Counted from the first letter of the stretch, positions 2,618 to 21,090 are shown. The stretch: DNA of 33,198 nucleotides from Candidatus Rokuibacteriota bacterium (GCA_050731995.1 JBOHQB010000074.1:1-33198), one strand, 5' to 3'. Notes: a model not told the origin generated them from the sequence alone. A program made the numbers and translations.

Positions 2618-2665
2618 TCGGCGATCCTACGGCCTCCCCTCGACCCCCGCAAGACGATCCAAACG

Positions 2666-2693: not shown

Positions 2694-2700
2694 CGCCGGC

Positions 2701-3483
2701 GTGACGACGAGCCATCGCGAGCAGATCCTCGACCAGTTCACGCGCCAGGCGGCGCCCTTCTCGACCGCGCCGTCGATCAAGGACGAGGCGGCGCTCCGGC
2801 TGATCGTCGAGTTCGGCGGCGCCACCGCCGACGACACCGTGCTCGACGTGGCGTGCGGCGGGGGTCTCGTCGTCTGCGCGTTTGCCCGCGTCGTCCGCCA
2901 CGCGACCGGCATCGACATCACGCCGGCGATGCTCGACCGCGCGCGCGCTCACGCCGCGGAGGCCGGGCTGACCAACGTCGCGTGGCGCCAGGGCGACGTG
3001 CTGCCGCTCCCCTGGCCGGACGCGTCGTTCTCGATCGTCACCTCACGCTTCGCCTTCCATCACCTCGAAGACCCCCGCGCGGCCCTCGCCGAGATGCGCC
3101 GTGTCTGCGTCCCGGGCGGGACGGTCATGGTCATCGACAGCGCGCCGGCGACCGACAAGGCCGACGCCTTCAACGCCGTGGAGCGGTTGCGCGACCCATC
3201 ACACGTGCGCGCCATGCCTCTCGAGGAGCTACGCGCGCTGTTCAGCGCGGTCGGTCTTCCCGACCCGCGTGTCACGTCCTATCGCCTCGAGGGAGAGCTG
3301 GACGGGCTCCTGTCGCGCTCCTTCCCGCGCCGGGAGGACGTTCCGACGCTCCGCCGCCTGTTCGAGGACTCGCTCGCCGACGACCGTCTCGGCATCGCGG
3401 CCCGGCGCGACGGCAACCGCATCCGCTACGGCTACCCCGTGGCGGTGCTCGCCGCCACGCGAACCCGCACGCGAACGGAGTGA
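2701..3483 (+). CDS. Class I SAM-dependent methyltransferase (Methyltransf_11/UbiE-like)
   Basis: 260 aa with a GTG start. SAM motif I VLDVACGGG, plus downstream motif blocks (GDVLPLPWPDASFSIV, PGGTVMVID). Confidence 0.8.
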   Translation: MTTSHREQILDQFTRQAAPFSTAPSIKDEAALRLIVEFGGATADDTVLDVACGGGLVVCAFARVVRHATGIDITPAMLDRARAHAAEAGLTNVAWRQGDVLPLPWPDASFSIVTSRFAFHHLEDPRAALAEMRRVCVPGGTVMVIDSAPATDKADAFNAVERLRDPSHVRAMPLEELRALFSAVGLPDPRVTSYRLEGELDGLLSRSFPRREDVPTLRRLFEDSLADDRLGIAARRDGNRIRYGYPVAVLAATRTRTRTE

Positions 3484-3486
3484 GCG

Positions 3487-3795
3487 ATGGGACGGATCGT
3501 GATCGCCGTCGTCTGCGTGCTGCTGATCGTCGTCGGGTGGCGTGCCCCGCGCTACCGCTCGCTCGCCGTCGGCGCGACAGGCGTGCTCATCTTCCTCACT
3601 TCGGTCCTCGCGTGGCGCTTCCTCATCCACTCGGAGACGATCTCCCTAGACCGGCTGCTCGGCCGATACTGGCTCTCCACGATCGACGTCCCAACGCACC
3701 TGCTCGTCTTCTTCGGCCCACCGGCCGTCTTCACCGCGCTGGTCTTCCTGCTCTTCGGCAAGCACATCACGCCGCCCGCGGCGGATGACGAGTAG
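3487..3795 (+). CDS. Small hypothetical integral membrane protein (about 3 predicted TM segments)
   Basis: 102 aa with GC3-rich codons. Hydrophobic runs IVIAVVCVLLIVVGW, VGATGVLIFLTSVLAW and LLVFFGPPAVFTALVFLLF. Starts 3 nt after the methyltransferase stop and overlaps dus by 11 nt. Confidence 0.55.
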   Translation: MGRIVIAVVCVLLIVVGWRAPRYRSLAVGATGVLIFLTSVLAWRFLIHSETISLDRLLGRYWLSTIDVPTHLLVFFGPPAVFTALVFLLFGKHITPPAADDE

Positions 3796-4690
3796 CCTCG
3801 ACCTCAGGCTGGCGCCGATGGCCGGCGTCACGAACGCGCCCTTCCGTCTCGTGGCGCGCGAGTGCGGCGCCGGCCTCCTGACGAGTGAAGAGATCGATGC
3901 GCGCGCCCTCGTGAGGGAGAGCGCCCACACGCGCGAGCTGGCGCGCTTCCTGCCGGGGGAGCGTCCGCTCGCGATGCAGCTGCTCGGCGCGGACCCCGAC
4001 GTCCTCGCCGATGCCGCACGCATGCTCGAGGCCGCGGGCGCCGACGCGATCGACCTCAACATGGGCTGCCCGGTGGCGAAGATCGTCGCCAAGGGTCAGG
4101 GCGCGGCGCTCATGCTCGACCCGCTTCAGGCCGCGGTGATCTTCCGCACGCTCCGCAAGGCCGTGTCCGTCGACTTCACGATCAAGATCCGGGGCGGCTG
4201 GGACGAGCGCGTCGTCAACGCCGTGGAGATCGCGCGCATCGCCGAAGGCGAGGGCGTGGACGCGATCACCGTGCACCCGCGCACGCGCTCGCAGCAGTTC
4301 ACGGGCCGGGCGCCGTGGGAGATCATCGCCGCCGTCGTGGACGCCGTCGCGATCCCCGTCGTCGGCAACGGCGACGTCCGGAGCCACGCCGACGCCGCCC
4401 TCATGGTCGCGGCGACGGGCTGCGCCGCTGTGATGATCGGGCGAGGCGCGCTCGGCGCGCCCTGGATCTTCCGGGGCGAGGACGTCCCCCGCGAGGAGCG
4501 GGCCGGGATCATCCGCCGCCACTGCGCGCTCATCGAGATCCACCTGCCTGCCCGCCTGGCGCTCGTCCAGCTCAAGAAGCACCTGGCGTGGTATTCCTCG
4601 GGACTGGCGGGCTCGGCGGCTGCGCGCGAGCGTCTCTTCCAGGCGGCGACACCCGGCGAGGTCTACGAGATCTTCTGGTCGCTCTGGTGA
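3785..4690 (+). CDS. dus: tRNA-dihydrouridine synthase (Dus family FMN oxidoreductase)
   Basis: 301 aa. LAPMAGVTNAPFRL N-terminal motif, IDLNMGCPV catalytic-Cys motif, ITVHPRT block, and a C-terminal helical domain. Confidence 0.85.
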   Translation: MTSSLDLRLAPMAGVTNAPFRLVARECGAGLLTSEEIDARALVRESAHTRELARFLPGERPLAMQLLGADPDVLADAARMLEAAGADAIDLNMGCPVAKIVAKGQGAALMLDPLQAAVIFRTLRKAVSVDFTIKIRGGWDERVVNAVEIARIAEGEGVDAITVHPRTRSQQFTGRAPWEIIAAVVDAVAIPVVGNGDVRSHADAALMVAATGCAAVMIGRGALGAPWIFRGEDVPREERAGIIRRHCALIEIHLPARLALVQLKKHLAWYSSGLAGSAAARERLFQAATPGEVYEIFWSLW

Positions 4691-5136
4691 ACGGGCAGCG
4701 GTGGTTCGAGGACTTCAAGATCGGCGAACGTTTCGCGAGCCCGTCGAAGACGCTGACCGACGCTCACTTCCTCTTCTTCGCCGGCATGACCGGCGACGCC
4801 CACCCCATCCACTATGACGACGAGTACGCGAAGAAGACGCGCTTCGGCCGGCGGCTCGCCCACGGGTTCCTACTGACGTCGCTCACCGCGGTCGGCGCGT
4901 CCACGCTGGCGCCGGTCATCGAGGACTCGATCGTCGCCTTCGTCGAGGCTACGACACGCTTCCGCGCTCCGGCCTTCATCGGCGACACGCTCAAGCCCGA
5001 GCACGAGATCGTCGGGCTCGAACGCAAGCGCTCGGCGGGCCTGCTCACGCTGCGCGTCACCCTCACCAACCAGCGCGGCGAGACGGTCCTCGGGGGCGAG
5101 CACAAGTATCTGATCGCGTATCGCTCGGGCGCATGA
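4687..5136 (+). CDS. MaoC-like (R)-specific enoyl-CoA hydratase / hotdog-fold dehydratase
   Basis: The listed ORF 4315..5136 has an Arg/Pro-rich non-coding-looking N-terminus. An in-frame GTG at 4687 overlaps the dus stop (GTGA). From there the product VNGQRWFEDFKIGERF...GDAHPIHYDDEYAKKTRFGRRLAHGF is a typical single hotdog of 149 aa. Confidence 0.75.
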   Translation: MNGQRWFEDFKIGERFASPSKTLTDAHFLFFAGMTGDAHPIHYDDEYAKKTRFGRRLAHGFLLTSLTAVGASTLAPVIEDSIVAFVEATTRFRAPAFIGDTLKPEHEIVGLERKRSAGLLTLRVTLTNQRGETVLGGEHKYLIAYRSGA

Positions 5137-6468: not shown

Positions 6469-7257
6469 ATGAGGCACGCTCCGAAGCGAGTCCTTCTGTG
6501 CGCCGTCGCGCTCGCCCTGTTCGTGCCGGCGCCGGCCGTGGCCCAGTCCGGCCTCGACATCATGAAGCGCCAGCGCGAGCTCCAGCGGGTCCGTGACGAG
6601 GAGGAGCGCCAGGTCCTCAAGCTCGTCAGCAAATCGGGGGCGTCCAAGGAGCGTAGGCTCGTGCGCTACACGCTGACCGGTTCCGGCGACCTCGACAAGA
6701 TCCTGGTCCGGTTCCAGGCGCCGCGTGACGTCGAGAACACCGCGCTGCTCACCTGGGAGGCCAAGGACGGCAACGACGACCAGTGGCTCTACCTGCCGTC
6801 GATCAAGAAGCCGAAGCGCATCGCGGCGAGCGGTAAGAAGAACCGCTTCATGGGCACGGATTTCGCCTTCGAGGACCTCCGGCCCGAGAACCTCACGGTC
6901 CACGCCTACGCCCTGACGGGCTCCGAGACGCTCGACGGGGTCGACTGCTTCGTCATCGACGCGACGCCATCGACGGAGCGCCAGGCGGCCGACAGCGGGT
7001 ACAGCCGACGCAAGATATGGATCCGCAAGGACACCCACGTCACTCTCAAGCGCGAGTTCTACGACAGGCAGGGCCGGCTCGAGAAGGTCGAGACCCACAG
7101 AAAGCTCGTGAACCAGAGCGGCAGCGTCTGGCGCGCCAACGAAGTCGAGATGAGCGACGTGCAGAACGGCACCCGCACGCTGGTGACCGTGGAATCGCGC
7201 GTCATCAATCAGGGGCTGAAGGACGATTTCTTCACGGAAGCTGAGCTGATTCGTTGA
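6469..7257 (+). CDS. Outer-membrane lipoprotein-sorting (LolA-like) periplasmic protein
   Basis: 262 aa. Signal peptide ending AVAQS. Characteristic DQWLYLPSIKKPKRIAASGKKNRFMGTDFAFEDL block of the LolA-like family that accompanies COG1033-type RND exporters. GGAGGG SD lies upstream. Confidence 0.8.
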   Translation: MRHAPKRVLLCAVALALFVPAPAVAQSGLDIMKRQRELQRVRDEEERQVLKLVSKSGASKERRLVRYTLTGSGDLDKILVRFQAPRDVENTALLTWEAKDGNDDQWLYLPSIKKPKRIAASGKKNRFMGTDFAFEDLRPENLTVHAYALTGSETLDGVDCFVIDATPSTERQAADSGYSRRKIWIRKDTHVTLKREFYDRQGRLEKVETHRKLVNQSGSVWRANEVEMSDVQNGTRTLVTVESRVINQGLKDDFFTEAELIR

Positions 7258-10019
7258 AGCGCATCCTGCTCTGGCTCTTCGAGCATCCGGTCGCATCCTG
7301 CGCGGCCGTGCTCGCGGTGACCGTGCTCCTCGGCTGGCAGATCCCCCGGCTCCGGATCGACGACTCGGCCGAGGGGCTGACGGTCGTGAACGACCCCGCC
7401 CGCAGCGTCTACGAGCTTGCCCGGAAGCGCTTCGGGAGCGACAACCTCACGGTCGTCCTCGTCAAGGCCGACGACGTCTTCGCGCCGGCCGTGCTGGCGG
7501 TCGTCCGGCGACTGTCCGACGGCCTCGTCCGGCTGCCGAACGTCAGCCGCGTGGAGAGCCTCACCACCGTCAAGAACATCCGGGGCGAGGGCGACTCGCT
7601 CAACACGGATCTTCTCATCGAGACCCTGCCCCGCACGCCGGAGGAGGTCGAGCGCATCCGCCGCGACGCCCTCGGAACCCGCGTGCTGGTCGGCAACCTC
7701 GTCGCCCGGGACGCCAGGGCCACCGCGATCACCGTGTACGCCGATCCGCGTGCCGACGACCCCGGCTTCAACCATCGTTTCGTCGGTCAGGTTGAGGCGC
7801 TGATCGCACGAGAGACCAAGCCGGGGCTCATCATCTATCAGGTCGGCGGGCCATTCATCAAGACCACGTACGCCGACTACATCACCCGCGATCAGAAGAC
7901 GGTCGTTCCGCTGTCGATCCTGGTGCTGCTCGGCGCCCTCCTGCTCTCGTTCCGGATGCTGCAGGGCGTGGTCATCCCGGTGATCACCGCGATCGTCAGC
8001 ATCGTCTGGGCGCTGGGCCTCATGGTGCTCTTCGACCTGCCGCTGACGATCCTCACCGGGATCATTCCGTCGCTGCTCCTGGCCATCGGCTTCACCGAAG
8101 ACGTGCACATGATCGCCGCGTACCACCATCACCTCGAGAGGGGTCAGGACAAGCTGAGCGCGATCCGGAGCATGCTCGAGGAGGCCGCGCTGCCCATCCT
8201 CGTCACCACCGGCACGACCGTGGTGGGCTTCGGCAGTCTCGTGACGACCGACATCACGATGCTGATCCAGTTCGGCTGGGCGTCGTCGCTCGGTCTCACC
8301 GCGAACTTCGTCGTCACCATGGCCCTGCTGCCGCCGATGCTGCGCTGGTGGAAGGTGCCCCGACGGTTCCGTCGCGCCGCCTTCGAGGACGAGTCCGAGC
8401 ACGGCATGATCCCCCGGCTCATGGAGCGCCTGGCGGAGTTCAACCTGCGATACCGGGTGCCGATCCTCGTCGTCAGCGGGCTCCTCACGGTCGGTTCGCT
8501 GATCGGCTGGTACACGCTGCGCGTCAACACGGACATCGTTAGCTTCTTCCCGGTGAGCTCGCCCGTCCGAACCCGCCTCGAGGACCTGCACCGCTCGATG
8601 TCTGGCGGACTGGCTTTCTACATCGTCGTCGACACGGGGCGCGAGGACGGGGTCAAGGACCCGGCGGTCCTCCGCACGATCGCCGGGCTTCAGGATTTCC
8701 TCGCGTCGACCGGCAAGGTGGACAAGAGCGTGTCGGTCGCCGACTACGTCCGCAAGATGAATCGGGAGATGCACGGTGGGGACCCGGCCTGGGAGACGAT
8801 CCCCGACACGCGCGATCAGGTGGCCCAGTACCTCCTGACCCTGGAGGGGCCGGAACTGGCGAAGTTCCTCGACTTCAACGCCGGGGCGGCGAACATCGTC
8901 GTGCGCCACGATCTCACGGGCTCCGGAGACCTGTCCGCCCTCCTAGGCCAGATCCAGGCCTGGGTGGCCCGGAGCGTCCCGGCCAACGTCAGCGTCAAGC
9001 CGACCGGCGAGGCAATCCTGTTCAACAACGCCTCCGACTTCATGGCGATCAACGAGCTGACCAGCTTCGTCTGGACCTTCATCATCATCGGCCTCATCCA
9101 CGCCGTGCTCTTCATGTCCTTCAAGGCGGGTGCGCTGTCGCTCATCCCCAACGCCGTGCCGATCCTCTTCAACTATGGTGTGATGGGGCTGCTCGGCATC
9201 CCCTTGAACACGAGCAATGCCCTGATCGCGACCATCGCCATCGGGATCGCGGTCGACGACACGGTGCACCACATGGTGACCTACAGCCGTCAGCTGAACC
9301 TCCACCACGATCAGAAGATCGCGATGCTCAACACCATGCGGGCGCAGGGGCGTCCGATCATCTATGTCTCGGTGGCACTGGCGGCCGGCTTCCTCGCGCT
9401 GGTCTTCTCGAGTTTCGTGCCCACGGTACATTTCGGCTGGCTGGCCGCGACCGTCATGCTCCTCGCGATGGTCACCGAGCTGGTGCTCACGCCGATCCTG
9501 ATGTATTCCACCCGCCTGATCACGCTGTGGGACTTGGTGCTCACGCGCATGAATCCCGACGTCGTACGCACGGCGCCGCTCCTCCATGGCCTCTCCCGGT
9601 GGGAGGCACGCAAGGTCGTTCTCCTCGGCCGCCTCGACGAGGTCACGGCCGACGCGCTGATCGTGGGCAAGGGGGAAACGGGCACCGAGATGTACATGAT
9701 CGTGAGCGGCCGCGTGCGCGTCTTCGACCGGCTCTCGAACGGCGCCGAGAAGACGCTCACCATCCTGGGTCCCGGCGAGATCTTCGGCGAGATGGCGCTC
9801 GTGAGCCAGGAGCCGCGCAGCGCCTCGGTCATTGCCGAGATGCCAACCACGGTCCTGCGTCTGGACTTCGAGGCTTTCGAACGGATCCGTCGGCGCTTCC
9901 CCTACACCGGCGCCAAGCTCTTCCGGAACCTCGCGCGCGTGCTGGCCGGTCGCCTGCGCGAGCTGACGGTCGTCGTGGTCGAGGGGGTCCCGCTGGCCGG
10001 AGGCGGCGAGTCTCGCTGA
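7254..10019 (+). CDS. RND-superfamily (MMPL/HpnN-like, COG1033-type) lipid exporter fused to a C-terminal cyclic-nucleotide-binding domain
   Basis: 921 aa. The TTG start overlaps the upstream stop (TTGA). Two internally duplicated halves, each a periplasmic domain plus a TM bundle, carry paired charged TM motifs (AIGFTEDVHMI and AIGIAVDDTVHHM). C-terminal CNB domain is described in the next feature. Confidence 0.85.
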   Translation: MKRILLWLFEHPVASCAAVLAVTVLLGWQIPRLRIDDSAEGLTVVNDPARSVYELARKRFGSDNLTVVLVKADDVFAPAVLAVVRRLSDGLVRLPNVSRVESLTTVKNIRGEGDSLNTDLLIETLPRTPEEVERIRRDALGTRVLVGNLVARDARATAITVYADPRADDPGFNHRFVGQVEALIARETKPGLIIYQVGGPFIKTTYADYITRDQKTVVPLSILVLLGALLLSFRMLQGVVIPVITAIVSIVWALGLMVLFDLPLTILTGIIPSLLLAIGFTEDVHMIAAYHHHLERGQDKLSAIRSMLEEAALPILVTTGTTVVGFGSLVTTDITMLIQFGWASSLGLTANFVVTMALLPPMLRWWKVPRRFRRAAFEDESEHGMIPRLMERLAEFNLRYRVPILVVSGLLTVGSLIGWYTLRVNTDIVSFFPVSSPVRTRLEDLHRSMSGGLAFYIVVDTGREDGVKDPAVLRTIAGLQDFLASTGKVDKSVSVADYVRKMNREMHGGDPAWETIPDTRDQVAQYLLTLEGPELAKFLDFNAGAANIVVRHDLTGSGDLSALLGQIQAWVARSVPANVSVKPTGEAILFNNASDFMAINELTSFVWTFIIIGLIHAVLFMSFKAGALSLIPNAVPILFNYGVMGLLGIPLNTSNALIATIAIGIAVDDTVHHMVTYSRQLNLHHDQKIAMLNTMRAQGRPIIYVSVALAAGFLALVFSSFVPTVHFGWLAATVMLLAMVTELVLTPILMYSTRLITLWDLVLTRMNPDVVRTAPLLHGLSRWEARKVVLLGRLDEVTADALIVGKGETGTEMYMIVSGRVRVFDRLSNGAEKTLTILGPGEIFGEMALVSQEPRSASVIAEMPTTVLRLDFEAFERIRRRFPYTGAKLFRNLARVLAGRLRELTVVVVEGVPLAGGGESR
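9570..10016 (+). other. Cyclic-nucleotide-binding (CAP/PKA-type) domain at the C-terminus of the RND exporter
   Basis: LIVGKGETGTEMYMIVSGRVRV...LGPGEIFGEMALVSQEPRSASVIA. The phosphate-binding cassette has the conserved FGE Glu and RSA Arg, and a hinge helix follows (LDFEAFERIRRRFP). Confidence 0.75.
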
Positions 10020-11379: not shown

Positions 11380-11393
11380 GCGCCCGTCTCAGG
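11375..11393. terminator. Short hairpin at the convergent operon junction (possible bidirectional terminator)
   Basis: CCTGAG (11375-11380) and CTCAGG (11388-11393) form a 6-bp stem around the 7-nt loop cgcccgt. The stem includes both stop codons (TGA 11377-11379 on plus, TGA 11391-11389 on minus). No U-tract. Confidence 0.2.
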
Positions 11394-13356
11394 CCGCCCG
11401 CGCCGTCGCGCGGTCCGGCCCGGCTTGGCGCGCATAGCGCGCGAGCGCCCAGGCCGGGAAGTAGGCCGAGTACAGCCGATAGTCCAGCATCGCAGTGCCG
11501 AAGAAAACGCCGTTGACGGAGCCGGCGGGCCATCCTCCGTTCGCCTCCTGTCGCGCGCACAGCCAGTCGATGCCCCGCTCGACCGACGCGTGGGTGGCGC
11601 CGACGACGTCGAGCAGTGCGAGCAACGCCCACGCGGTCTGCACCGGCTGGCTGAGGGCGTGCTCGACGTAGCGGTCGTGCAGACATCCCGACCAGTGCTC
11701 CCCCCAGCCGCCGTCCGGACGCTGCCGCGCGACGAGCCACTCGGCGGCGCGAACCAGGGCGAGGTCATCGGCCGCCACGCCGGCGCCGCGCAGCCCCGCG
11801 ACGAAGTGGAAGGCGCCGTACGTGAAATTGATGCCCCACGCTCCCGTGATCGCGCCGTCGACGCGCTGGCTCGCGCGGAGGAATCGAACGCCTCGCTCGA
11901 TCGCCGGCGCGACGCCCGGCACCAAGGTCGGGTCGCGCCGTCCGAGTCGCGCGAGCGCCGACACGCACGAGGCGGTGCATTCGATGTACGAGCGCTCTGT
12001 CATGCAGCGACCGAACATCTCGGACGCGTTGAGCCGCTCGAGCCACGGGCCGCCGCGGCGCGGCTCGTAAGTCCCAAAACCGCCATCGCGGTTCTGGCGG
12101 GCGAGGATGAATCGGGCCGCGAGGGCCAGCCGTGTCGCCGGCGTCCGTTCGGACTGGGGGATGACCGGCTCCGCGCTCAGCAGCGCGCTCACCGCCTCGG
12201 CGGTGCAATCGCTCACCGGCCAGCGATGGACCCCGTCGGAGAAGCACCAGCCGCCCGCGGTCGGCTCGCGGTCCTGCTCTCGCCAACGCGGCAGCTCGCT
12301 CGTGAGCTGCGTGTCGCGCAGGAATCCGTAGCCGCGCCGGACGGCCGCGGCGTGCGCCGGCTCGTCGCCCGTCGTGAGCGCGCGGAGCGCGAAGGCGGTG
12401 TCCCAGGCGTTCGAGCGGGCCCCGGCGTAGCGGATTCCGCCCGCGTCCTCCCAGCGCCAGCCTTCGAGGCCGTCCAGGCTGGCGGCCAGCGCCGGGTCGG
12501 CCGGATCGTGCGCCCACAGCGACAGGCAGTCGAGGACCGCGTTGACCGGCGACAAGCCGAGCCACCGGCTCTCGCGCTGCTCGTAGCGGATGCGATCGAG
12601 GCACGCGTCGAGCGCGCGCCGGCGCAGCCTGACGGGAGTCACGCGGTCCACGCCGGACAGCACCGACGCCGCCACGCGCAGACCGGGGCCCGGACGCACG
12701 TACAGGTCGCTCGCCGCCACGTCGTGGCGGTGGGCCGCGAAGTCGAGGGTCGCGTACGGCTCCGCGTAGAGCTCCTCGCGCAGCGCCGCGCCGAGGGGTC
12801 CGAGGTCGGCGGTGACTCGCCGCCCGTACACATAGGCCACCGCCAGATAGATGTAGCGCGTGTGGCAGTACCAGCGGGCCGGGTGGAACGGGAGGAGCCG
12901 CGGCAACGCGTAGAGCTCGGGCAGCACCGGCGTGACGCCGGCCCAGCCGTAGAGCCCGAGCAGCGCAAGCCAGAGCTTGCCCCACGTGGGGATCGCCAGC
13001 ACGCCGCCCGCCTGTCCCCGCAGCCAGCCGCGCGCGTCGGCGACGAGCGGCTCGTCGCGCTCGAGGCCGAGCAGCCGCAGCGCGACGTACACCAGCGTGG
13101 TGACGAAGACGTACCCCGCCGACTCCGGATGAAGGCCCCACGCGCCGTCGGCCGTTCGCACTCCGCGCAGGTAGCGAACGATCCCCGCACGGGTCGCCGC
13201 GCCGACCGGACGCCCGACGACGTGGCGGACGATGACGACCTGGGCCGTGATCATCGGGCACCACACCACCTCGCCCTCCCAGTCGCCGCGCGGTGACTGC
13301 AGCGTCACGAGGCGGGCGAGGGCGCTATCGCGCGCGGCGGCGGCGGCCGCGAGCAT
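11389..13356 (-). CDS. osc: Oxidosqualene cyclase (lanosterol/cycloartenol/parkeol synthase type terpene cyclase)
   Basis: The listed ORF reaches 13476, but Met41 at 13356 overlaps the upstream stop by 1 nt (TGATG), giving 655 aa. OSC-type catalytic motif WPVSDCTAEA at 12196-12222, not the SHC-type DxDDTA. Multiple QW repeats (RFLRASQRVDGAITGAWG, EWLVARQRPDGGWGE, DWLCARQEANGGWP, FILARQNRDGGFG). Confidence 0.9.
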   Translation of the reverse strand: MLAAAAAARDSALARLVTLQSPRGDWEGEVVWCPMITAQVVIVRHVVGRPVGAATRAGIVRYLRGVRTADGAWGLHPESAGYVFVTTLVYVALRLLGLERDEPLVADARGWLRGQAGGVLAIPTWGKLWLALLGLYGWAGVTPVLPELYALPRLLPFHPARWYCHTRYIYLAVAYVYGRRVTADLGPLGAALREELYAEPYATLDFAAHRHDVAASDLYVRPGPGLRVAASVLSGVDRVTPVRLRRRALDACLDRIRYEQRESRWLGLSPVNAVLDCLSLWAHDPADPALAASLDGLEGWRWEDAGGIRYAGARSNAWDTAFALRALTTGDEPAHAAAVRRGYGFLRDTQLTSELPRWREQDREPTAGGWCFSDGVHRWPVSDCTAEAVSALLSAEPVIPQSERTPATRLALAARFILARQNRDGGFGTYEPRRGGPWLERLNASEMFGRCMTERSYIECTASCVSALARLGRRDPTLVPGVAPAIERGVRFLRASQRVDGAITGAWGINFTYGAFHFVAGLRGAGVAADDLALVRAAEWLVARQRPDGGWGEHWSGCLHDRYVEHALSQPVQTAWALLALLDVVGATHASVERGIDWLCARQEANGGWPAGSVNGVFFGTAMLDYRLYSAYFPAWALARYARQAGPDRATARAA

Positions 13357-14429
13357 CAGGAGTGCGCGGGTGCGGCGCCCGCCAAATACTCCTCCCACTT
13401 CTTCACGGTGAGCTGCTGGAAGAGGCCGACCGCCGGGTTGAGGTCGGGCACCGGCCGATCGTGGTGCGTCTCCCACCCGCGCTGCTCGGCCTCCACGGCG
13501 AAGCCGTCCTGGGCGAGCAACGGGTGGATGAGGACCCGGTTGGAGATCCGGAGCACGAGCGTCATCAGCCGACGTGGGATGCGGAGTGGCGTGAGCGGGA
13601 TCCTGAGCGATTCAAAATAGAAGAGGAAAAACGTCCGGGTCGTGCTCTCGTCGATCGGCAGGAAGAAGCACCAGTGCTTGATCTTGCCGTCCGTGTTCGA
13701 CCACTGGTACGGGTACTCGTAGCAGAGATCCATCGCGTTCGTATTCACACGACGCCGGTCCACGAACAGTCCCGAGATCCGGCCGCGCCCGACGCGCGTA
13801 TCGTAGGAGACGTGGACGGCGTCGCCGACCCGCTCGCAGCGGGTGAGCCGCGCGTCCTCGAACGGCCGGTATTTGCGGTGCAGCCACGCATGGGTGAAAT
13901 CGCTCACGTTGTCGACGACCATCGAGTGGTGCGCACGCCACGTGAAGTCGAGCGGCACGCACGCCCAGCGCCCGGGGTCCTCGAGCTCCGGGATATCGGG
14001 AATCGATCGACGGTCGGCCCGCGCGGGATCGCCCGGGTAGACCCAGACGAGGCCGTAGCGCGCCTTCACGGGGTACGTGCGCAGCGTGACCTTCGGCAAC
14101 GGGCGGCCGAACAGCTCGTGAGGCACGTGCGCGAGTCGGCCGGTCCCATCGTACGCCCAGCCATGATAGGCGCACGTCAGCCGGCAGTCCTCCACGCTGC
14201 CGAGCGTCAGCTTCAGCTGACGGTGGGCGCAGCGGTTCTCGACCGCGTGGAGCGCGCCGTCTTCGTCGCGCCACAGCGCGATCGACTGCCCCCAGAACTG
14301 AGTCTCGACGACGGCGCCGGGTTGCACCGCGCGGTCGTACTCGACCGCGTACCAATAGTCCGGATGCAGGCCGGCCGCGCGGGCCTTCTCGCGCAGGTTG
14401 CGCGCCTCGGCGAACGACGGGCCGCTCAC
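13356..14429 (-). CDS. Rieske [2Fe-2S] non-heme-iron oxygenase, SdmA-like (candidate sterol C-4 methyl oxidase), paralogue 2
   Basis: The 661-aa listed ORF is an artefactual 5' extension. The GTG at 14429 overlaps the upstream stop (GTGA) and aligns with the Met start of the paralogue, giving 357 aa. Rieske motif CAHRQLKLTLGSVEDCRLTCAYHGW. Mononuclear-iron motif DNVSDFTHAWLH. Confidence 0.8.
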   Translation of the reverse strand: MSGPSFAEARNLREKARAAGLHPDYWYAVEYDRAVQPGAVVETQFWGQSIALWRDEDGALHAVENRCAHRQLKLTLGSVEDCRLTCAYHGWAYDGTGRLAHVPHELFGRPLPKVTLRTYPVKARYGLVWVYPGDPARADRRSIPDIPELEDPGRWACVPLDFTWRAHHSMVVDNVSDFTHAWLHRKYRPFEDARLTRCERVGDAVHVSYDTRVGRGRISGLFVDRRRVNTNAMDLCYEYPYQWSNTDGKIKHWCFFLPIDESTTRTFFLFYFESLRIPLTPLRIPRRLMTLVLRISNRVLIHPLLAQDGFAVEAEQRGWETHHDRPVPDLNPAVGLFQQLTVKKWEEYLAGAAPAHS

Positions 14430-15496
14430 GCCGGAACCCCGGCGGACCCGGCCCGGGCCAGGTGCGCCTCCCACTTCCGAATGGTGAGCCGGTGGAGCAG
14501 GGCGACGGCCGGATTCAGCTCGACGAGGGGCGCGTCCCAGTGGGCCTCGTAGCCGCGCTGCTCCGCTTCCAGCGCCACGCGGTCCTGATCGAGGAGCGAG
14601 CGTACGAACGGCTGGATCGCGGCGAGGACCCACCGGAGGGCCCGGTGCGGCGGCGACACCGGCAGCCCCGGCACGCGGAGCCGGTCGTAGGCCATCACGA
14701 AGAAAACGCGCGTGGTGCGGACGTCCATCGGCAGCAGAAACGTCCAGTACCTGATCTGCCCGCGGATGCCCGACCACTCGAACGCCGCCCAATGGTACGG
14801 GTACTCGAAACATATCGTCATCGGTGACGGAGCCACGTCGTGCCGCACGCGGGGCCCCACCTTCGCCTCGTAGCGCAGGAGGACGCGGTCGTCCGTGGCG
14901 TCCCAGTCGAGCAACCGCCCCGGCTGGAACGACGCGAACCTCCGGTGCAGGTGCGCGTGCGTCAGATCGCAGAGGTTGTCCATCACCATCGAGTGATGCG
15001 CGCGCCACGTGAAGTCGATCGGCACATACGCCCACGGTTCGGAGCCCTCGAGCACCGGCACCTCCGGCAGCGGGACGCGCGCGGCCAGCGTGGGGTCGCC
15101 CGGGAAGATCCAGATCAACCCGTAGCGCTCGAGGACGGGATAGTGGCGGATGTGCACGGACGGCATCGAGTGCCCGAACCGGTCGTGGGGCACGTCCACG
15201 AGCCGTCCGGCGTCGTCGTACGTCCAGCCGTGATAGGCGCAGGCCAGGCGGCAGCCCTCCACGCTGCCGAGCGAGAGCGGCAGCTGGCGATGGGCGCAGC
15301 GGTCCTCGAGCGCGTGCACGCGGCCGTCGGTATCCCGCCACAGGACGATGGCCGCGCCCCAGAACGAGGTGGCGCGGATCGCGCGCAGCGGCAGCCTGCG
15401 CTCGTATTCGACCGCATACCAGTGATTCGGATCGAGCCCGGCCGCGCGGACCTTCTGGCGCAAGCCGACGGCGTCGGCGAACGCCGGCGGCGTCAT
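14426..15496 (-). CDS. Rieske [2Fe-2S] non-heme-iron oxygenase, SdmA-like (candidate sterol C-4 methyl oxidase), paralogue 1
   Basis: The ATG at 15496 overlaps the CYP51 stop (ATGA), giving 356 aa. CAHRQLPLSLGSVEGCRLACAYHGW and DNLCDLTHAHLH motifs. Collinear with the downstream paralogue along its whole length. Confidence 0.8.
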   Translation of the reverse strand: MTPPAFADAVGLRQKVRAAGLDPNHWYAVEYERRLPLRAIRATSFWGAAIVLWRDTDGRVHALEDRCAHRQLPLSLGSVEGCRLACAYHGWTYDDAGRLVDVPHDRFGHSMPSVHIRHYPVLERYGLIWIFPGDPTLAARVPLPEVPVLEGSEPWAYVPIDFTWRAHHSMVMDNLCDLTHAHLHRRFASFQPGRLLDWDATDDRVLLRYEAKVGPRVRHDVAPSPMTICFEYPYHWAAFEWSGIRGQIRYWTFLLPMDVRTTRVFFVMAYDRLRVPGLPVSPPHRALRWVLAAIQPFVRSLLDQDRVALEAEQRGYEAHWDAPLVELNPAVALLHRLTIRKWEAHLARAGSAGVPA

Positions 15497-16881
15497 GACG
15501 GAACCGCCGTCAGCGCAGGCGCTGTCACCGTCACACGGAGGCGCCGGCGGTAGCGCACGATGCACGGTGGCCGGGGCCCGACGACGAACGTCGAGTAGTC
15601 CGGGCGGTGGCCGGTGCGCACCGGCGTGAGGTCGAAGCGCCGGAGCAGCACCGACCAGATGACCTTGATCTGCTGCTCGGCAAAGGTCGAGCCGATGCAG
15701 CGGTGGTGTCCGCCGCCGAAGCCGATCAGCGCGTGCTTCACGGCGCGATCCTCCTGCCGCCCGGGACCGAAGCGATCGGGATCGTACCGATCGGGATCGC
15801 GAAAGACCCCGGCGATTCGGTGGCCGGCGGCCGGCGAGACCATCGCCAGATCGCCAGCGGGGACGATGTACTCGCCGTACGCGATCTCGCGGAGGACCCG
15901 TCGCATGAGCATGACGAGCGGCGGATGCATCCGCTCGGCCTCCTTGATGCACCGCTCCAGCGCGACCAGCCGCCGCAGCGCCGCCAGGTCCACGATCCGC
16001 CCGTCGGGCAGCACCTCGCGCTGCTCGGCCAGCACGGCGGGCAGGTGCTCGGGGTGCTCGAGCAGCAGCAGGCCGGTCCAGACGCTCATGATCGCGCTCG
16101 TGTGCTGGCCGGCGAAGATGGTCCCGAGCAGGAGGCCCGTGATCTCGTCGTCGGAGAGCGGCCGGCCGTCGCTGTAGCGGGCGGCCATGAGCGTCTGGAG
16201 GAAGTCCTCTCCTTCGACCCCGCGTTCGCGCCGCTCAGCGATGACGCCGGCGATCAGGGCCGCCACCTGCGCCCGGGCACGGTCGCGGCGGCGGAAGGCC
16301 GGCAGCGGCAGATGCGGGTTGAAGAACGCGATCAGGTTGATGCCGCGCTCGAGGTCATGATAGAGGTGCGCGAACTCCTGCGTCACCCGCCGCCGCATCT
16401 CGTCGCCGATGAGGCATCTCGTGGCGATGAACACCGTCAGCTCGTTCATCGCCACGGCCAGGTCGATCTCTCCGGCGTCGCCCCACGTATCGGTGTACGC
16501 CTCGGTCTCCTCCTGCATGACGCGCGCGTACGTCCGCAGGCGGTCGTCGCGCAGCGCGGGGAAGAGAAAGCCCATCTGCTCGTCGAAGACCGGCGGCGTC
16601 GCATCGTAGACCACGCCACGGCCAAAGATGGGCACGGTGAACCGATAGACCTCGCGCGCGCTCAGCTGGTCCTCGGGTGCGCCGAAGAACGCCGCGTGCG
16701 CGCGCGGTCCCAGGAAGGCCGTCACCCGCGTCCCCGGAAGGCGGAACGAGAACAGGTCGCCGAATCGCGCGTGCCCGTCCCGGAGGAGGCGGGCCGGGTC
16801 GCGCCGGAGCGCCGGCGCATGGCCGAGGAGCGGCCAGCCGCCGGACAGCATTGGGGGACGCCGATTGCGATGGGCGCTCAC
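15493..16881 (-). CDS. cyp51: Cytochrome P450 sterol 14-alpha-demethylase (CYP51 family)
   Basis: 462 aa. CYP51 signatures are present: FGRGVVYDA (B'-C region), helix I FAGQHTS, ExxR (EAER) and heme-Cys loop FGGGHHRCIG. ATGA overlap with the upstream SDR stop. Confidence 0.9.
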   Translation of the reverse strand: MSAHRNRRPPMLSGGWPLLGHAPALRRDPARLLRDGHARFGDLFSFRLPGTRVTAFLGPRAHAAFFGAPEDQLSAREVYRFTVPIFGRGVVYDATPPVFDEQMGFLFPALRDDRLRTYARVMQEETEAYTDTWGDAGEIDLAVAMNELTVFIATRCLIGDEMRRRVTQEFAHLYHDLERGINLIAFFNPHLPLPAFRRRDRARAQVAALIAGVIAERRERGVEGEDFLQTLMAARYSDGRPLSDDEITGLLLGTIFAGQHTSAIMSVWTGLLLLEHPEHLPAVLAEQREVLPDGRIVDLAALRRLVALERCIKEAERMHPPLVMLMRRVLREIAYGEYIVPAGDLAMVSPAAGHRIAGVFRDPDRYDPDRFGPGRQEDRAVKHALIGFGGGHHRCIGSTFAEQQIKVIWSVLLRRFDLTPVRTGHRPDYSTFVVGPRPPCIVRYRRRLRVTVTAPALTAVPS

Positions 16882-17876
16882 GCCCGCGGACCGATCTTGC
16901 CGCGCCTCACGAAGTCCTCGTACGCATCGCGCACGGCATCCTCGACGGAGGTCGGCTGGTACCCGAGCTCCGTGCGCGCCTTGGTGATATCGGCGCGTCG
17001 GTGCATTCGGAGGATTCGGACCGCGCCAGGCGTGAAGCGCGGCTCCACATCAGGGGCGAGTCGGCGCACGAAGAAGTCGAGCATCTCGGCCAGACCGGCC
17101 ATCAGGGGCGGCGGCACCCGCAACCGCGGCCGGGGCCGCCCGGTGACACGCTCGTACATCGCCATCAGCTCGTCGACCGTCTTGAACTCGGTCGAGAAGA
17201 TGTATTTCTGGCCGCTTCGCCCCTTGTCCATCGCCAGCAGGTGCCCCTGAACGATGTCGCGCGCGGCGACGAACTCGAAGCCGCCCGGGACATACGCGCG
17301 CAGTCGTCCGCGCGCGAAGTCGAGGAGCAGCTGGCCCATCCGCGACGGCTTGAAGTCGTGCGGGCCCAGGATGGCGCACGAGGTCGCGATGACGACGTCG
17401 AGACCGTCCACGACGGCCTTGAGGCATTCGTGCTCCACCGCCACCTTGCTGCGCTGGTAGGGCAGCAGCGGCGCGAACGGATCGACCGGCACCGTTTCGT
17501 CGCTCGGCCGGAGCGGATCGTGGCCGACCGCGCTGAAGGAGCCGGTAACGACGACGCGCTCGACCCCCGCGTCGAGCGACGCGCGGAGCAGATGACGCGT
17601 GCCGAGCACGTTGCAGGCGTAGATCTCTTTCTGCTGGCCTTCGGCGCTCGAGACCTTGGCCGCGCAGTGGTAGACGCGCTCGCAGCCGCGGACCGCAGCC
17701 CGCGTCTCACCCGCGTCGCGAAGATCGCCCCAGACGGTCTCGACGTCGAGGCCGGCCAGCGCCTCGACGGAGGCGTGAGATCGTTCGAGAACCCTGACCT
17801 CCTGGCTCTCGTCGAGAAGGCGTCGGACCAGGTTCGCGCCGAGATGCCCACTGCCGCCCGTCACGAGCACGCGCAT
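16878..17876 (-). CDS. NAD(P)-dependent epimerase/dehydratase / 3-beta-hydroxysteroid dehydrogenase family protein (SdmB-like, candidate C-4 decarboxylase/3-ketoreductase partner)
   Basis: 332 aa. VLVTGGSGHLGANLV Rossmann motif and catalytic YQRSK (YxxxK). Extended-SDR length. First gene of a five-gene overlap-coupled operon. Confidence 0.8.
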   Translation of the reverse strand: MRVLVTGGSGHLGANLVRRLLDESQEVRVLERSHASVEALAGLDVETVWGDLRDAGETRAAVRGCERVYHCAAKVSSAEGQQKEIYACNVLGTRHLLRASLDAGVERVVVTGSFSAVGHDPLRPSDETVPVDPFAPLLPYQRSKVAVEHECLKAVVDGLDVVIATSCAILGPHDFKPSRMGQLLLDFARGRLRAYVPGGFEFVAARDIVQGHLLAMDKGRSGQKYIFSTEFKTVDELMAMYERVTGRPRPRLRVPPPLMAGLAEMLDFFVRRLAPDVEPRFTPGAVRILRMHRRADITKARTELGYQPTSVEDAVRDAYEDFVRRGKIGPRA

Positions 17877-18247: not shown

Positions 18248-19528
18248 TCACAGGCGCTGCGGCTCGGTCACGGGGACGGGCCCGCGCCACCACAGTCGAA
18301 TCATCTCGCCCAGGATCGGGAGCGCCACGCGCGGCCTCAGGAATGTGCGCTTCGGACGCGCGCCGGTCATGGCCTCCGCCCACTCGAGCAGGAATTCGGT
18401 GCCGCGCCGGCGCATGAGCGCCGCACAGCCGTCGAGAAAGGCGGGATAGCGCGCGGAGGCCGCCGCCATCGCCCAGGACCAGCGGAAGTCCCACCCGAAC
18501 GACGCCATCCAGCGATCCTGATACCGCTGGAGAAACGCCGCGCTGAGGTCGTGGGCCTCGAGCGCCTCGTCGAGTGTCTGGGCGGCGATCTCGCCTCCAT
18601 CCATCGCGTACTGGATGCCCTCACCCGTCAGCGGGTCGATGTGACCGGCGGCGTCGCCGATGACGAGCATGTGGTCGCCGACGCTCTGCGGCACGCCGCC
18701 GAGACGGAGCGGCGCCGCGCGCATCGGTGCCAGACGCGCGCGAGGACCGAGAGCCCGGTTGACGTACGGGTCGCCTCGCACGATCTTGTCGTGGAGCCGC
18801 TTGAGGTCGCGAAGCCCCGCCTGGCCGCCGGGAATCACGTAGCAGCACAGGTTCAGCTCTCCGCCGGCCTCCCGGAACAGCACGCAGTATCCGGGCAGAA
18901 GCTCGCGTGGATAGAACATGACGCCGTCCGAAGCGAAGTCCGTCGTGCCGGCCTCGACGTACGCGCGGCTGCACACGCCGTCGGGCGCCGTCGTCACGAC
19001 ACCGAGTGAGCGCGCGAGACGCGCGAGAGCGCCGTCCGCCGTCACCAGCGCCCGGGCCTCGTACGTCGTGGCCGGCTGCGTCGCGCAGCGCACAGTCCAC
19101 ACGCCCGAGCCCGGAGCGAAGTCGGCGCCGGCGACCGGTGAATCTTCAACGAGCGTCGCACCGGCGGAGGCCGCTGCGCGCGCCAAGCGCACATCGAGCG
19201 CGACGCGCTTGATCGCGATCACGAGCGGGCGTCGCCCGTCCTCCACCGAGCTGCCGATGTAGGCGACTCCGCGCGGACTGACGAAGCCGCCGATCTCGGC
19301 CCAATGGCCTTCGCCCGCGGCGAGCACGTCGGCCAGCACCCCCATCCGCTCGAGGTGGACCTGCGCCCGTCCGGTGACGGCGTCGCCGCAGAGCTTGTCC
19401 CGCGGGAAGCGCTCACGCTCCAGGAGCAAAACGCGCCGGCCACGGCCGGCGAGATAGTACGCGCACGTGGAGCCGGCGGGGCCGGCGCCGACGATACAGA
19501 CATCCCACGGCGACGCGGGGGCGACCAT
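18248..19528 (-). CDS. FAD-dependent oxidoreductase, geranylgeranyl reductase (GGR) family
   Basis: WDVCIVGAGPAGSTCAYYLA Rossmann motif. RERFPRDKLCGDAV (GGR-type Cys). GDAAGHIDPLTGEGIQYAM. An AGGA SD lies 5 nt before the ATG at 19528. An in-frame GTG at 19531 is an alternative start. Confidence 0.8.
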   Translation of the reverse strand: MVAPASPWDVCIVGAGPAGSTCAYYLAGRGRRVLLLERERFPRDKLCGDAVTGRAQVHLERMGVLADVLAAGEGHWAEIGGFVSPRGVAYIGSSVEDGRRPLVIAIKRVALDVRLARAAASAGATLVEDSPVAGADFAPGSGVWTVRCATQPATTYEARALVTADGALARLARSLGVVTTAPDGVCSRAYVEAGTTDFASDGVMFYPRELLPGYCVLFREAGGELNLCCYVIPGGQAGLRDLKRLHDKIVRGDPYVNRALGPRARLAPMRAAPLRLGGVPQSVGDHMLVIGDAAGHIDPLTGEGIQYAMDGGEIAAQTLDEALEAHDLSAAFLQRYQDRWMASFGWDFRWSWAMAAASARYPAFLDGCAALMRRRGTEFLLEWAEAMTGARPKRTFLRPRVALPILGEMIRLWWRGPVPVTEPQRL

Positions 19529-19573
19529 CACGTTCCTGTCTAACGTATCCGGCGTGCGCTGTCCATGACGTCC

Positions 19574-20584
19574 TCAGTAGAGGAACGGAACCATCCGCCA
19601 GCGGACACGCTCACAGTACGCGGCCCACAGCGCGCCGTACTTTTGGCGGCAGCGACGGTCGTCGCGCCGGGCGCGGTGGAGGAAGAAGAAGGTCAGCCAG
19701 AGCGCGGGCAGGTACGGCACCGGTGACGCAAGCCCGCACGGCAGCGTCCACGCATAGTAGAGGATCAGCTCGCCGGTGTAGTTGAGCTTGCGGCCGATAC
19801 CCCAGAACCCCGAGACGAGCAGCCGGCCGCCGATCGTCTCCGGCGGCCGCCGCCAGACCGGCGCGGACGGGTCGAGCTTGAACTGGTGCTTCTGCGCGTT
19901 GGCGCCCCGGAAGAGCCAGAAGCCGAACACGTACATGGCGATGAGCCCGACGGCGGCCGGGAGCGACGGCGGGCTCACCCGGTCGACAAGATACCATCCG
20001 GGCAGGCTGTAGAAGAACGGTACCAGGACCCAGTCGCCCCAGACGAGGGCCCAGCCGAAGCGCTCCTCCAGGACATCCCAGGTGAAGCGCATCCCGTGCT
20101 CGAAGTGGAAGTAGTTCGCGACGTAGAGCAGCGTGAACGCCTCGAACAGCAGCATGGGAGTCGCCAGGCGGCCGTGGCGCTCCCACTGGGCGAAGGCGAA
20201 GCCGAGGTTGACGAGGCCGAGCGCGATCAGCGACGGGCGGTAGGCGAACATTTTGAGATCGACTCCGCGCCACACCGGAGCACGCTCCACGCCATAGAAG
20301 AAATCGAGGGCCGCCTCGCGAAGGCCGCCCTCGAGGAGGCCGCGTCCCTGGGCCCACCGGCCGCACGCGTAGAGGAGGCCGGCCGACGCGAGGGCAAGCA
20401 CGTTGGCGGCGACGAGCAGCGCGCCGAAGTGACGAATGATAGCCGACGGCGACCAGATCCCGACGGCGACGGTCGCGGCGACGGCGGCGGCCGCCACGCC
20501 GAGCAGTCGGAGCCCGCTCAGCCCGTAGCCCGAGGCCACGAAGAGCGCGCCGACGAATCCCACCACCGCCAGCGCGGCGATCAT
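19574..20584 (-). CDS. ERG4/ERG24-family sterol reductase (most plausibly Delta14-sterol reductase)
   Basis: The N-terminal 118 aa of the listed 454-aa ORF overlap the EBP-like gene out of frame and look non-coding. The ATG at 20584 overlaps the EBP-like stop (ATGA), giving 336 aa. Family signatures GIGRKLNYTGELILYYAW and FFLHRARRDDRRCRQKYGALWAAYCERVRWRMVPFLY are present. Multi-TM. Confidence 0.85.
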   Translation of the reverse strand: MIAALAVVGFVGALFVASGYGLSGLRLLGVAAAAVAATVAVGIWSPSAIIRHFGALLVAANVLALASAGLLYACGRWAQGRGLLEGGLREAALDFFYGVERAPVWRGVDLKMFAYRPSLIALGLVNLGFAFAQWERHGRLATPMLLFEAFTLLYVANYFHFEHGMRFTWDVLEERFGWALVWGDWVLVPFFYSLPGWYLVDRVSPPSLPAAVGLIAMYVFGFWLFRGANAQKHQFKLDPSAPVWRRPPETIGGRLLVSGFWGIGRKLNYTGELILYYAWTLPCGLASPVPYLPALWLTFFFLHRARRDDRRCRQKYGALWAAYCERVRWRMVPFLY

Positions 20585-21090
20585 GCTCGCGGACTCGCGA
20601 AGCGTCGGACGATCGCCGTGAAGGCGTCCCAGGCCAGCCAGGCGTGCGCGGCGAGCCACGGCAGCGTCAGGCCGTAGAAAAGCGTGAACCCCGTCGCGGT
20701 GCGCGCGCGCATCCCCGCGTAGCCGCTGAGATGACCGGCCAGCAGGTAGAGGATGCACGAGTACGCGACGTAGGCGCCGAGCGCCAGCTGCAGCGCGTGG
20801 CGCCAGGGCGCACCGCGCAGGATGCCAGCGATGAGGACGATGTTCACGAGCGTCGTCACGAAGACGTTGAACCCTTCTTGCGCGAGCGACCAGGGCGAGG
20901 CGATCCAGAACCGGTCCGCGTCGGCATAAAGGGCCCACAGGTCCGCGGCCCAGTCGGAGCCCACGAGTTGAGGCAGATCACGCCCACGCCGGACCAGCGC
21001 CCAGTCGAGCGTCACGTTGAAAGCGGAGAAGAACAGGAGCAGCCCGATACTGACGCGATCCCGCGTAGCGAGCGAGGCCGCGGCCGGCAT
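20581..21090 (-). CDS. EBP/EXPERA-family small membrane protein (candidate sterol Delta8-Delta7 isomerase)
   Basis: 169 aa from the ATG at 21090 (in-frame GTG at 21093). By eye it is collinear with human EBP: LWALYADADRFWIASPWSLAQEGFNVFV...APWRHALQLALGAYVAYSCILYLL against [28 protein letters not shown]...[24 protein letters not shown]. It lacks the first TM of the eukaryotic protein. Confidence 0.6.
   Translation of the reverse strand: MPAAASLATRDRVSIGLLLFFSAFNVTLDWALVRRGRDLPQLVGSDWAADLWALYADADRFWIASPWSLAQEGFNVFVTTLVNIVLIAGILRGAPWRHALQLALGAYVAYSCILYLLAGHLSGYAGMRARTATGFTLFYGLTLPWLAAHAWLAWDAFTAIVRRFASPRA

Follow-up and report, generated by a model that had tools for sequence, protein, structure and literature searches.

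A contig of 33,198 nucleotides from a Candidatus Rokuibacteriota bacterium (GCA_050731995.1, JBOHQB010000074.1:1-33198, the whole of which is called the window below) encodes a protein of 921 residues in which a transporter body of the RND superfamily, with twelve transmembrane helices, continues in the same open reading frame (ORF) into a cytoplasmic cyclic-nucleotide-binding (CNB) domain. The fused gene sits between the genes of a LolA-like periplasmic protein and a squalene epoxidase in one operon; this operon adjoins a sterol biosynthesis cluster, and both the fusion and its sterol neighbourhood recur in related loci. The reading favoured here, with a probability of roughly 0.55, is that the protein is an inner-membrane sterol exporter of the MMPL/HAE3 type, driven by the proton-motive force and gated by a cytoplasmic tail that would sense cyclic AMP (cAMP) or cyclic GMP (cGMP).

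A CNB domain behind the last transmembrane helix

The fusion gene is a single uninterrupted ORF (Table 1), and its third-position GC content is uniform at 0.92 along the whole of its length. The initial annotation had placed a CAP/PKA-type CNB domain behind the last transmembrane segment, at 9570-10016; this span (aa 773-921) is correct, beginning inside the linker and ending at the last codon, and the domain assignment is borne out by profile and predicted fold alike. The hidden Markov model PF00027 (cNMP_binding) covers aa 797-880 (nt 9642-9893) with E=3.8e-23 and 81.7 bits (gathering threshold 27.5), and a sequence search of the PDB with the isolated tail returns chains of PKG, PKA-R, CRP-family proteins, SthK and MloK1, with E values from 6e-24 to 1e-10. 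Two AlphaFold2 models, a full-length one built on a 36-sequence alignment (predicted local distance difference test, pLDDT, 85.6; predicted TM-score, pTM, 0.76) and one of the tail only (pLDDT 89.4), give a CAP-like fold: an eight-strand β-barrel with an internal cassette helix (846-851), and with αA (782-791) and αB/αC (872-881 and 883-910, the latter 28 residues long) on either side. Foldseek places the tail model on T. thermophilus CAP (4ev0) at 38% identity and a root-mean-square deviation (rmsd) of 1.7 Å, and it superposes as well on cAMP-bound GlxR, Mtb CRP, PKA RIα CNB-B, SthK and MloK1; the rmsd against cAMP receptors is 1.7-2.3 Å, and the matches to 4ev0, 3r6s, 3h3u, 5kjx and SthK have a probability of 1.00, query TM-scores of 0.61-0.78 and rmsd values of 1.7-3.5 Å. 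The tail is thus a bona fide CAP/PKA-type CNB domain and a predicted nucleotide sensor.

The phosphate-binding cassette is intact, as the initial annotation had judged it to look: the string it quoted, GEIFGEMALVSQEPRSASVIA, agrees residue for residue with the translated nt 9774-9836 and contains both G845-E846 and R855-S856-A857. In PKA, CRP and cyclic-nucleotide-gated channels, the Gly-Glu pair of the cassette binds the ribose 2'-OH and the Arg-[Ser/Thr]-Ala motif the cyclic phosphate. All five positions (G845, E846, R855, S/T856 and A857) are invariant in the 36 closer homologues; across 134 family tails, G845 is kept in 130, E846 in 118, R855 in 118 and A857 in 112, and position 856 holds Thr in 56 tails and Ser in 45 (101 together), the window protein having Ser. 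The counts over the 134 tails show clear purifying selection on the cassette.

The last transmembrane helix (TM12) spans aa 722-751 in the AlphaFold2 model and is followed by a 30-residue linker, STRLITLWDLVLTRMNPDVVRTAPLLHGLS, with predicted helices at 758-763 and 768-773. In the homologue alignment L755, W759 and D760 of the linker are invariant and their neighbours nearly so; conservation of this strength is expected of a linker that passes a conformational change to TM12.

An RND body of the lipid-handling branch

The transporter body matches the Pfam families MMPL (2.9e-27; 95.9 bits against a cut-off of 20.5), Patched SSD and Sterol-sensing. In the full-length model, α/β periplasmic domains at aa 28-198 and 421-585 are inserted between TM1 and TM2 and between TM7 and TM8, respectively. 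By Foldseek, the body is closest to MmpL4/MmpL5 (target TM-score 0.77-0.80), and then to NPC1L1, HpnN, MmpL3, NPC1 and Patched; these neighbours place it in the lipid-handling branch of the superfamily, and the lipid exporter of the RND/MMPL class proposed at the outset is supported, its closer affiliation being HAE3-like. Two acidic pairs, E282-D283 in TM4 (nt 8097-8102; helix 268-295) and D668-D669 in TM10 (nt 9255-9260; helix 653-684), are invariant in the 36 homologues and fit a pump driven through a proton relay, a role that these residues would share.

Distribution of the fusion

PF00027 and RND domains occur together in all of the 120 best homologues (58-88% identity) drawn from JGI, ENA, NCBI and Logan assemblies, and one tailed homologue lies on a complete 3.9-Mb Nitrospira chromosome. 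Among 13 loci from species-representative genomes, body and tail share one frame in 11. The remaining two are L011, truncated at a contig end, and L012, a distant relative without the tail; L013, a match to the CNB tail only, is left out of the fusion count. In an exhaustive HMMER search across 1.84 billion cluster representatives, from which the 150 best matches were taken, the tail is present in 133 of these 150 representatives at 50% identity, down to ~28-30% identity; because the query includes the tail and the ranking therefore favours tailed proteins, the count is to be read as at least 133 clusters at 50% identity and gives no proportion among HAE3 transporters. Named members come from several phyla and comprise Rokuibacteriota/Methylomirabilota, Nitrospirota, Desulfomonile, Desulfobacterales and Campylobacterota. 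Such fusions are not rare, and in metagenomes they are common. The JGI pipeline labels some of them 'predicted RND superfamily exporter protein/CRP-like cAMP-binding protein': automated annotation already picks up the architecture, without interpreting it.

Variants of the architecture exist among the relatives (P0156, P0164, P0174, P0177 and P0041), in the forms RND-CNB-GGDEF, FHA-RND-CNB, RND-CNB-CNB and RND-CNB-receiver; the RND-CNB lineage repeatedly gains cytoplasmic signalling domains.

Operon and sterol cluster

The operon runs on the plus strand in the order DUF1302-like gene, LolA-like gene, RND-CNB, squalene epoxidase (Table 1). Its members are tightly packed: the TGA stop of the LolA-like gene (7255-7257) overlaps the TTG start of the fusion gene by 4 nt, the ATG of squalene epoxidase lies 1 nt past the RND-CNB stop, and the start of the DUF1302-like gene overlaps the stop of a MaoC-like ORF 5' of it. 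The LolA-like protein matches the PDB entries 9tp6, 3bk5 and 4z48, 'outer membrane lipoprotein-sorting protein'. Beyond squalene epoxidase, and on the opposite strand, lie genes for an oxidosqualene cyclase and for sterol-modifying enzymes; the combination of cyclase, epoxidase and modifying enzymes marks a bacterial sterol biosynthesis cluster. The first of the two Rieske genes scores 321.7 bits against NF052579 (SdmA, 4β-methylsterol monooxygenase), below the cut-off of 600; two Rieske genes lie between the oxidosqualene cyclase and CYP51 in the window and one in the syntenic locus L020. Pfam scans of the window ORFs reveal no nucleotide cyclase or phosphodiesterase gene. Sterol genes in Ca. 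Rokubacteria were known earlier, in a report that mentions no transporter (PMC7306690).

Table 1. Coordinates of the fusion gene and its parts, of the operon and sterol cluster, and of features in related loci (positions without a locus prefix refer to the window).
Feature	Position	Strand	Details
RND-CNB fusion gene	7254..10019	+	921 aa plus stop, TTG start, single uninterrupted ORF
RND body	7254..9506	+	aa 1-751; 12 transmembrane helices, two periplasmic domains
Linker, 30 residues, TM12 to CNB domain	9507..9596	+	STRLITLWDLVLTRMNPDVVRTAPLLHGLS; two short helices
CNB domain	9597..9983	+	aa 782-910; αA, β-barrel, αB, long αC
Phosphate-binding cassette	9774..9836	+	GEIFGEMALVSQEPRSASVIA; Glu846 nt 9789-9791, Arg855 nt 9816-9818
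Putative outer-membrane partner, DUF1302-like, 441 aa	5133..6458	+	signal-peptide-like N-terminus, C-terminal ...LRYLF
LolA-like (TP_0789-like) periplasmic protein, 262 aa, putative lipid carrier	6469..7257	+	LolA_like 1.6e-55, DUF1329 5.9e-10
Squalene epoxidase, 452 aa	10021..11379	+	SE 7.2e-21, FAD_binding_3 (Pfam)
2,3-Oxidosqualene cyclase	11389..13476	-	TIGR03463 osq_cycl 869.8 bits, cut-off 851; SQHop_cyclase N and C
Two tandem SdmA-like Rieske oxygenases	~13356-14440 and 14426-15480 (starts approximate)	-	Rieske and VanA_C in both (Pfam)
CYP51 sterol 14α-demethylase	15493..16881	-	372.6 bits to 6q2c, 362 bits to Methylococcus CYP51 6mcw (PDB)
3β-HSD/epimerase-family dehydrogenase, SdmB-like position	16878..17876	-	Epimerase 4.3e-35, 3Beta_HSD 6.1e-21 (Pfam)
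Geranylgeranyl-reductase-family flavoprotein	18248..19531	-	TIGR02032 164.8 bits, cut-off 158.8
ERG4/ERG24-family sterol reductase	19574..20938	-	ERG4_ERG24 6.6e-63 (Pfam)
P450 with two CNB domains	L016:7682-9898	-	divergent from RND-CNB
2×CNB, BFD-type ferredoxin, FAD-binding reductase, P450; 1285 aa	L021:12718-16575	-	convergent neighbour of RND-CNB; intact cassettes
P450 with two tandem CNB domains	L022:8001-10205	+	intact cassettes
~500-aa weak-Metallophos protein in the place of squalene epoxidase	L014:12757-14262, L007:5405-6916, L018:12847-14346	+	

The sterol synteny of the window is kept in L001-L005, L009, L019, L020 and L021 (57-80% identity), on contigs of Rokubacteria/Methylomirabilota. 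Squalene epoxidase is syntenic in L001-L005, L019 and L020; in L002-L005, L009 and L019 the DUF1302-like gene stands 5' of the LolA-like/RND pair, as it does, more distantly, in L006 and L007; and the LolA-like gene lies directly 5' of RND-CNB in most related loci examined, the exception being L016, where a gene for a P450-CNB fusion takes its place. In L010, L016 and L017, RND-CNB adjoins an ERG4/24 gene, accompanied in L010 and L016 by a sterol methyltransferase and a KshA-like Rieske gene. The 'Cyclase' Pfam matches in L018 and L020 belong to PF04199, a family of kynurenine-formamidase-type enzymes, which are not nucleotide cyclases.

On the plus strand of the window, positions 1-5136 carry genes for a SBP_bac_5 solute-binding protein, an amidohydrolase, a methyltransferase, a Dus dihydrouridine synthase and the MaoC-like dehydratase; beyond the sterol block, an Ala_racemase_N/D-Ser-dehydratase-like gene is found at 21098-22198 (-). 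Synteny of these flanking genes extends to L020, L021 and L005, and the whole arrangement of ~22 kb is thus conserved in the lineage. Past the sterol block, LemA and two TPM-domain genes occupy 23749-25769 (-), with no relation to the fusion seen.

Sensor-bearing P450s in sister clusters

CNB domains are also fused to P450s encoded in sterol clusters (Table 1). Both cassettes of the L016 fusion are intact, GYFGEIGLLHKVARTATVRA and EYFGEVGLVQGRPRMATVRA. P450s with two CNB domains constitute a family in its own right: ~45 of the 120 best-matching homologue clusters combine P450 and CNB domains (98-30% identity), and those that are named come from Vicinamibacteria, Ktedonobacterales and Halofilum (Acidobacteriota, Chloroflexota and Gammaproteobacteria). 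On a Vicinamibacteria contig the P450-CNB gene lies among KshA-like Rieske, 3β-HSD, ERG2 and steroid-5α-reductase-like (Steroid_dh) genes, and a Halofilum copy adjoins FA_hydroxylase and SDR genes, the former of the ERG3/ERG25 family; in a third context of the P450-CNB fusion, no sterol genes are seen. The presence of the same sensor on two kinds of sterol-cluster protein constitutes evidence of the Rosetta-stone type for a cyclic-nucleotide input to the pathway. Locus L016 also encodes, 8 kb downstream of RND-CNB, a stand-alone CNB protein of 139 aa (L016:21029-21448, +; PF00027 9.2e-21).

Proposed mechanism

In the mechanism proposed for the window protein, the RND pump would use the proton-motive force to extract from the inner membrane the sterol made by the co-encoded pathway of squalene epoxidase, oxidosqualene cyclase, CYP51, SdmA/SdmB-like enzymes and ERG24; it would hand this sterol to the LolA-like periplasmic carrier, which would in turn deliver it to the DUF1302-like outer-membrane protein. 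Binding of a cyclic nucleotide to the cassette (Glu846, Arg855-Ser856-Ala857) would reposition the αB/αC lid, and the movement of the lid may pass through the conserved linker to TM12 and the putative proton-relay helices (TM10 with D668/D669, TM4 with E282/D283); the altered state of TM12 and of the relay helices would then switch transport either on or off. The long, CRP-like αC may in addition pair two protomers. A sterol is inferred with moderate confidence as the substrate of the Rokubacteria-type members, the window protein included. The wider proposal, that a cyclic nucleotide acts through the RND-CNB and P450 sensors as a direct post-translational regulator of sterol homeostasis in Rokubacteria/Methylomirabilota and some other uncultured lineages, is decidedly more tentative than the gated exporter itself.

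Several observations weigh against the reading as a gated sterol exporter; those on the class of the pump, its outer-membrane partner and the need for the tail are given here, and those on substrate and ligand with the alternatives that they favour. TIGR00921 (HAE3) is the best NCBIfam match at 210 bits, under its cut-off of 351.9; the HpnN profiles TIGR03480 and NF052374 give 95.8 bits (cut-off 751.85) and 34.1 bits (1100), and the BstA profile NF045600 gives 24.3 bits (1400). Orthology to HpnN or BstA is excluded by scores so far under their cut-offs, and the protein thus represents a distinct HAE3-like lineage that is the orthologue of neither triterpenoid transporter. The DUF1302 match of the putative outer-membrane partner is weak (21.7 bits against a cut-off of 23.2, over a 37-residue stretch), and that of its L019 orthologue is faint too. 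The tail is absent from 15 of 143 near-full-length representatives, from which it follows that the pump can work without it. A rough neighbour-joining tree scatters these 15 among the 128 tailed proteins; being crude and drawn from a tail-biased list, it is compatible with an old fusion followed by losses and is not relied on for a single origin.

Alternative explanations

The competitor that survives best, an unlikely one all the same, keeps the regulation by a cyclic nucleotide and gives the pump another substrate, such as a hopanoid, another isoprenoid, a general hydrophobe or an outer-membrane lipid, the adjacency of sterol genes being secondary. No sterol genes are found within 10 kb on each side in Nitrospira sp. 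Kam-Ns4a (L014) and in L018, nor in ~2.4 kb downstream in Desulfomonile (L007), and all three loci retain the LolA-like/RND-CNB pair; the fusion thus predates, and reaches beyond, its association with sterols, and the substrate of the family is not generally a sterol. The spread of the family to Desulfobacterales and Campylobacterota points the same way, as does the export of monoterpenes by the only characterised relative with the same types of partner (AmeABCD, below). In these three loci a protein of ~500 aa is encoded in the place of squalene epoxidase, overlapping the RND-CNB stop by 4 nt in L014; it gives weak matches to calcineurin-like phosphoesterases (Metallophos) and none in the PDB or NCBIfam, and a function as a phosphodiesterase is speculation from these matches. 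For the window protein, a sterol is favoured by the translationally coupled operon with squalene epoxidase, by sterol neighbourhoods in 13 loci at 57-80% identity (the window, L001-L005, L009, L010, L016, L017 and L019-L021) and by the CNB fusions of sterol-cluster P450s. For the Nitrospira-type members a non-sterol substrate is plausible, for the window protein it is less so; of the initial guess of a sterol or hopanoid exporter, the sterol part is strengthened by adjoining sterol genes and recurrent synteny, and the fusion itself proves not to be sterol-specific.

Less probable still is a tail that is not a cAMP/cGMP receptor at all, and that instead binds another small molecule or serves as a dimerisation or scaffold module through its long C-helix. 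In the CRP/FNR superfamily, domains with the CNB fold may recognise a different ligand or have no ligand at all, the nearest structural neighbours by Foldseek are CRP-family sensor domains in which αC is the dimer interface, and the cassette Glu or Arg is missing from ~12% of the 134 family tails. The residues of E. coli CRP that contact adenine N6, T127/S128, appear to align with the nearly invariant R900/L901; neither position 856 nor this register, which is uninformative, tells cAMP from cGMP. Trypanosomatid PKA reportedly takes purine nucleosides instead of cAMP (PMC10959531). Set against these points is the retention of the G-E ... R-[ST]-A contacts in ~88% of tails despite divergence to ~30% identity, and their invariance in the closer homologues; such a pattern is expected for cyclic-nucleotide binding and not for a purely structural role or a non-nucleotide ligand.

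A further alternative, improbable and weaker than the two preceding ones, makes the protein mainly a membrane-lipid sensor or receptor in the manner of Patched or SCAP, with the CNB domain as part of a module for signalling output or integration. It can draw on the Sterol-sensing and Patched SSD matches, on the structural resemblance to NPC1, NPC1L1 and Patched, on the variants with signalling domains (RND-CNB-GGDEF in P0156 and P0164, RND-CNB-REC in P0041, FHA-RND-CNB in P0174) and on the two-component genes that flank Nitrospira-type loci, where a divergent response-regulator gene follows the ~500-aa protein, as it does in Desulfomonile, and a GAF-histidine kinase lies upstream in L014 and L018. 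The common architecture, however, has no output domain besides the transporter; the invariant acidic pairs of TM4 and TM10 point to proton-coupled active transport; and transport is favoured too by the close packing of the gene with those of a LolA-like carrier and a putative outer-membrane partner, an arrangement known from AmeABCD. An artefact joining two genes through assembly, frameshift or gene calling, a worry raised with the initial annotation, is ruled out for practical purposes by the open ORF, its even third-position GC, over 120 homologues that were assembled independently and stem from four data sources, and the recurrence of the fusion on the complete Nitrospira chromosome and in 11 of 13 genome loci, nothing having been found in its favour.

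Significance

RND transporters such as AcrB, MmpL3, HpnN, NPC1 and Patched are central to drug efflux, envelope biogenesis and sterol handling; to our knowledge, their control is known only at the level of transcription or, for some MmpLs, through phosphorylation, and not through gating by a second messenger. Should the wider proposal hold, cAMP or cGMP would coordinate sterol synthesis, modification and trafficking to the outer membrane; no earlier case would then be known of an RND transporter gated by a second messenger, nor of a regulatory circuit for bacterial sterols. The conserved family, with a predicted cAMP/cGMP sensor wired to TM12, offers a natural system for the study of RND allostery. 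The role, regulation and movement of sterols in bacteria are an open question, for which only the unrelated BstABC system has been described, and an exporter translationally linked to squalene epoxidase, together with sensor-bearing P450s in sister clusters, provides a concrete and testable hypothesis. As the source organisms are uncultured, it matters that the tail can be assayed and the operon expressed heterologously.

The premise of the initial annotation, that RND/MMPL transporters are not usually gated by second messengers, agrees with the literature searched: full-text searches, with subscription journals outside their coverage, returned no paper on a second-messenger-gated RND transporter, none on an RND-CNB fusion and no report of a regulatory input to bacterial sterol trafficking. 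A census of CNB domains from 2007 lists no RND class (PMC2246266).

Comparison with known systems

CNB domains gate a range of transport proteins, among them the K+ channels MloK1 and SthK, HCN/CNG channels, the Na+/H+ exchanger SLC9C1 (PMC6052114) and ABC exporters such as HetC (PMC10986499). Like the window protein, these have a cytoplasmic CNB domain at the C- or N-terminus, joined to the transmembrane module by a short linker, and SthK and MloK1 match the tail both by sequence and by fold; none of them, however, is an RND or lipid transporter, and no precedent was found for coupling to an RND TM12 rather than to a pore-lining helix. The CRP/CAP receptors (4ev0, GlxR, Mtb CRP) are the best structural match of the tail and share its cassette residues and long αC; in contrast to them, the window tail lacks a helix-turn-helix DNA-binding domain and has R900/L901 at the adenine-reading positions of E. 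coli CRP.

Among RND systems, HpnN of Rhodopseudomonas palustris and Burkholderia multivorans (5khn/5khs; Foldseek E=3e-20) belongs to the same MMPL/HAE3 branch, has triterpenoid genes adjacent and carries its substrate, a polycyclic triterpenoid, in the direction of the outer membrane, but has neither a cytoplasmic sensor nor dedicated periplasmic or outer-membrane partners. BstABC of Methylococcus capsulatus (PMC10942540) likewise combines an MMPL RND protein with a periplasmic and an outer-membrane-associated protein beside osc, sdmA and sdmB; BstA is without a CNB domain, and the LolA-like and DUF1302-like partners described here have no relatives in BstB (PhnD-like) or BstC (TRAP T-component-like). 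AmeABCD of Castellaniella defragrans, which effluxes apolar monoterpenes (PMC6394551), shares an HAE3/MMPL RND protein (AmeD), a LolA-superfamily partner (AmeB, LolA-like/DUF1329), a putative DUF1302-type partner (AmeA), a location in an isoprenoid gene island and, on the reading favoured here, a hydrophobic isoprenoid substrate. It differs in that AmeD, at 787 aa, has no CNB tail, in that its genes accompany catabolic ones and not sterol biosynthesis, in the DUF1302 match, which falls below the Pfam cut-off in the window, and in a fourth protein, AmeC (COG4447), for which Pfam scans of the window ORFs find no counterpart between or beside the three genes. Both components of the fusion are of well-known kinds, and CNB-gated channels and carriers exist as well; for an RND transporter that bears a cyclic-nucleotide sensor, the literature searched gave no report.

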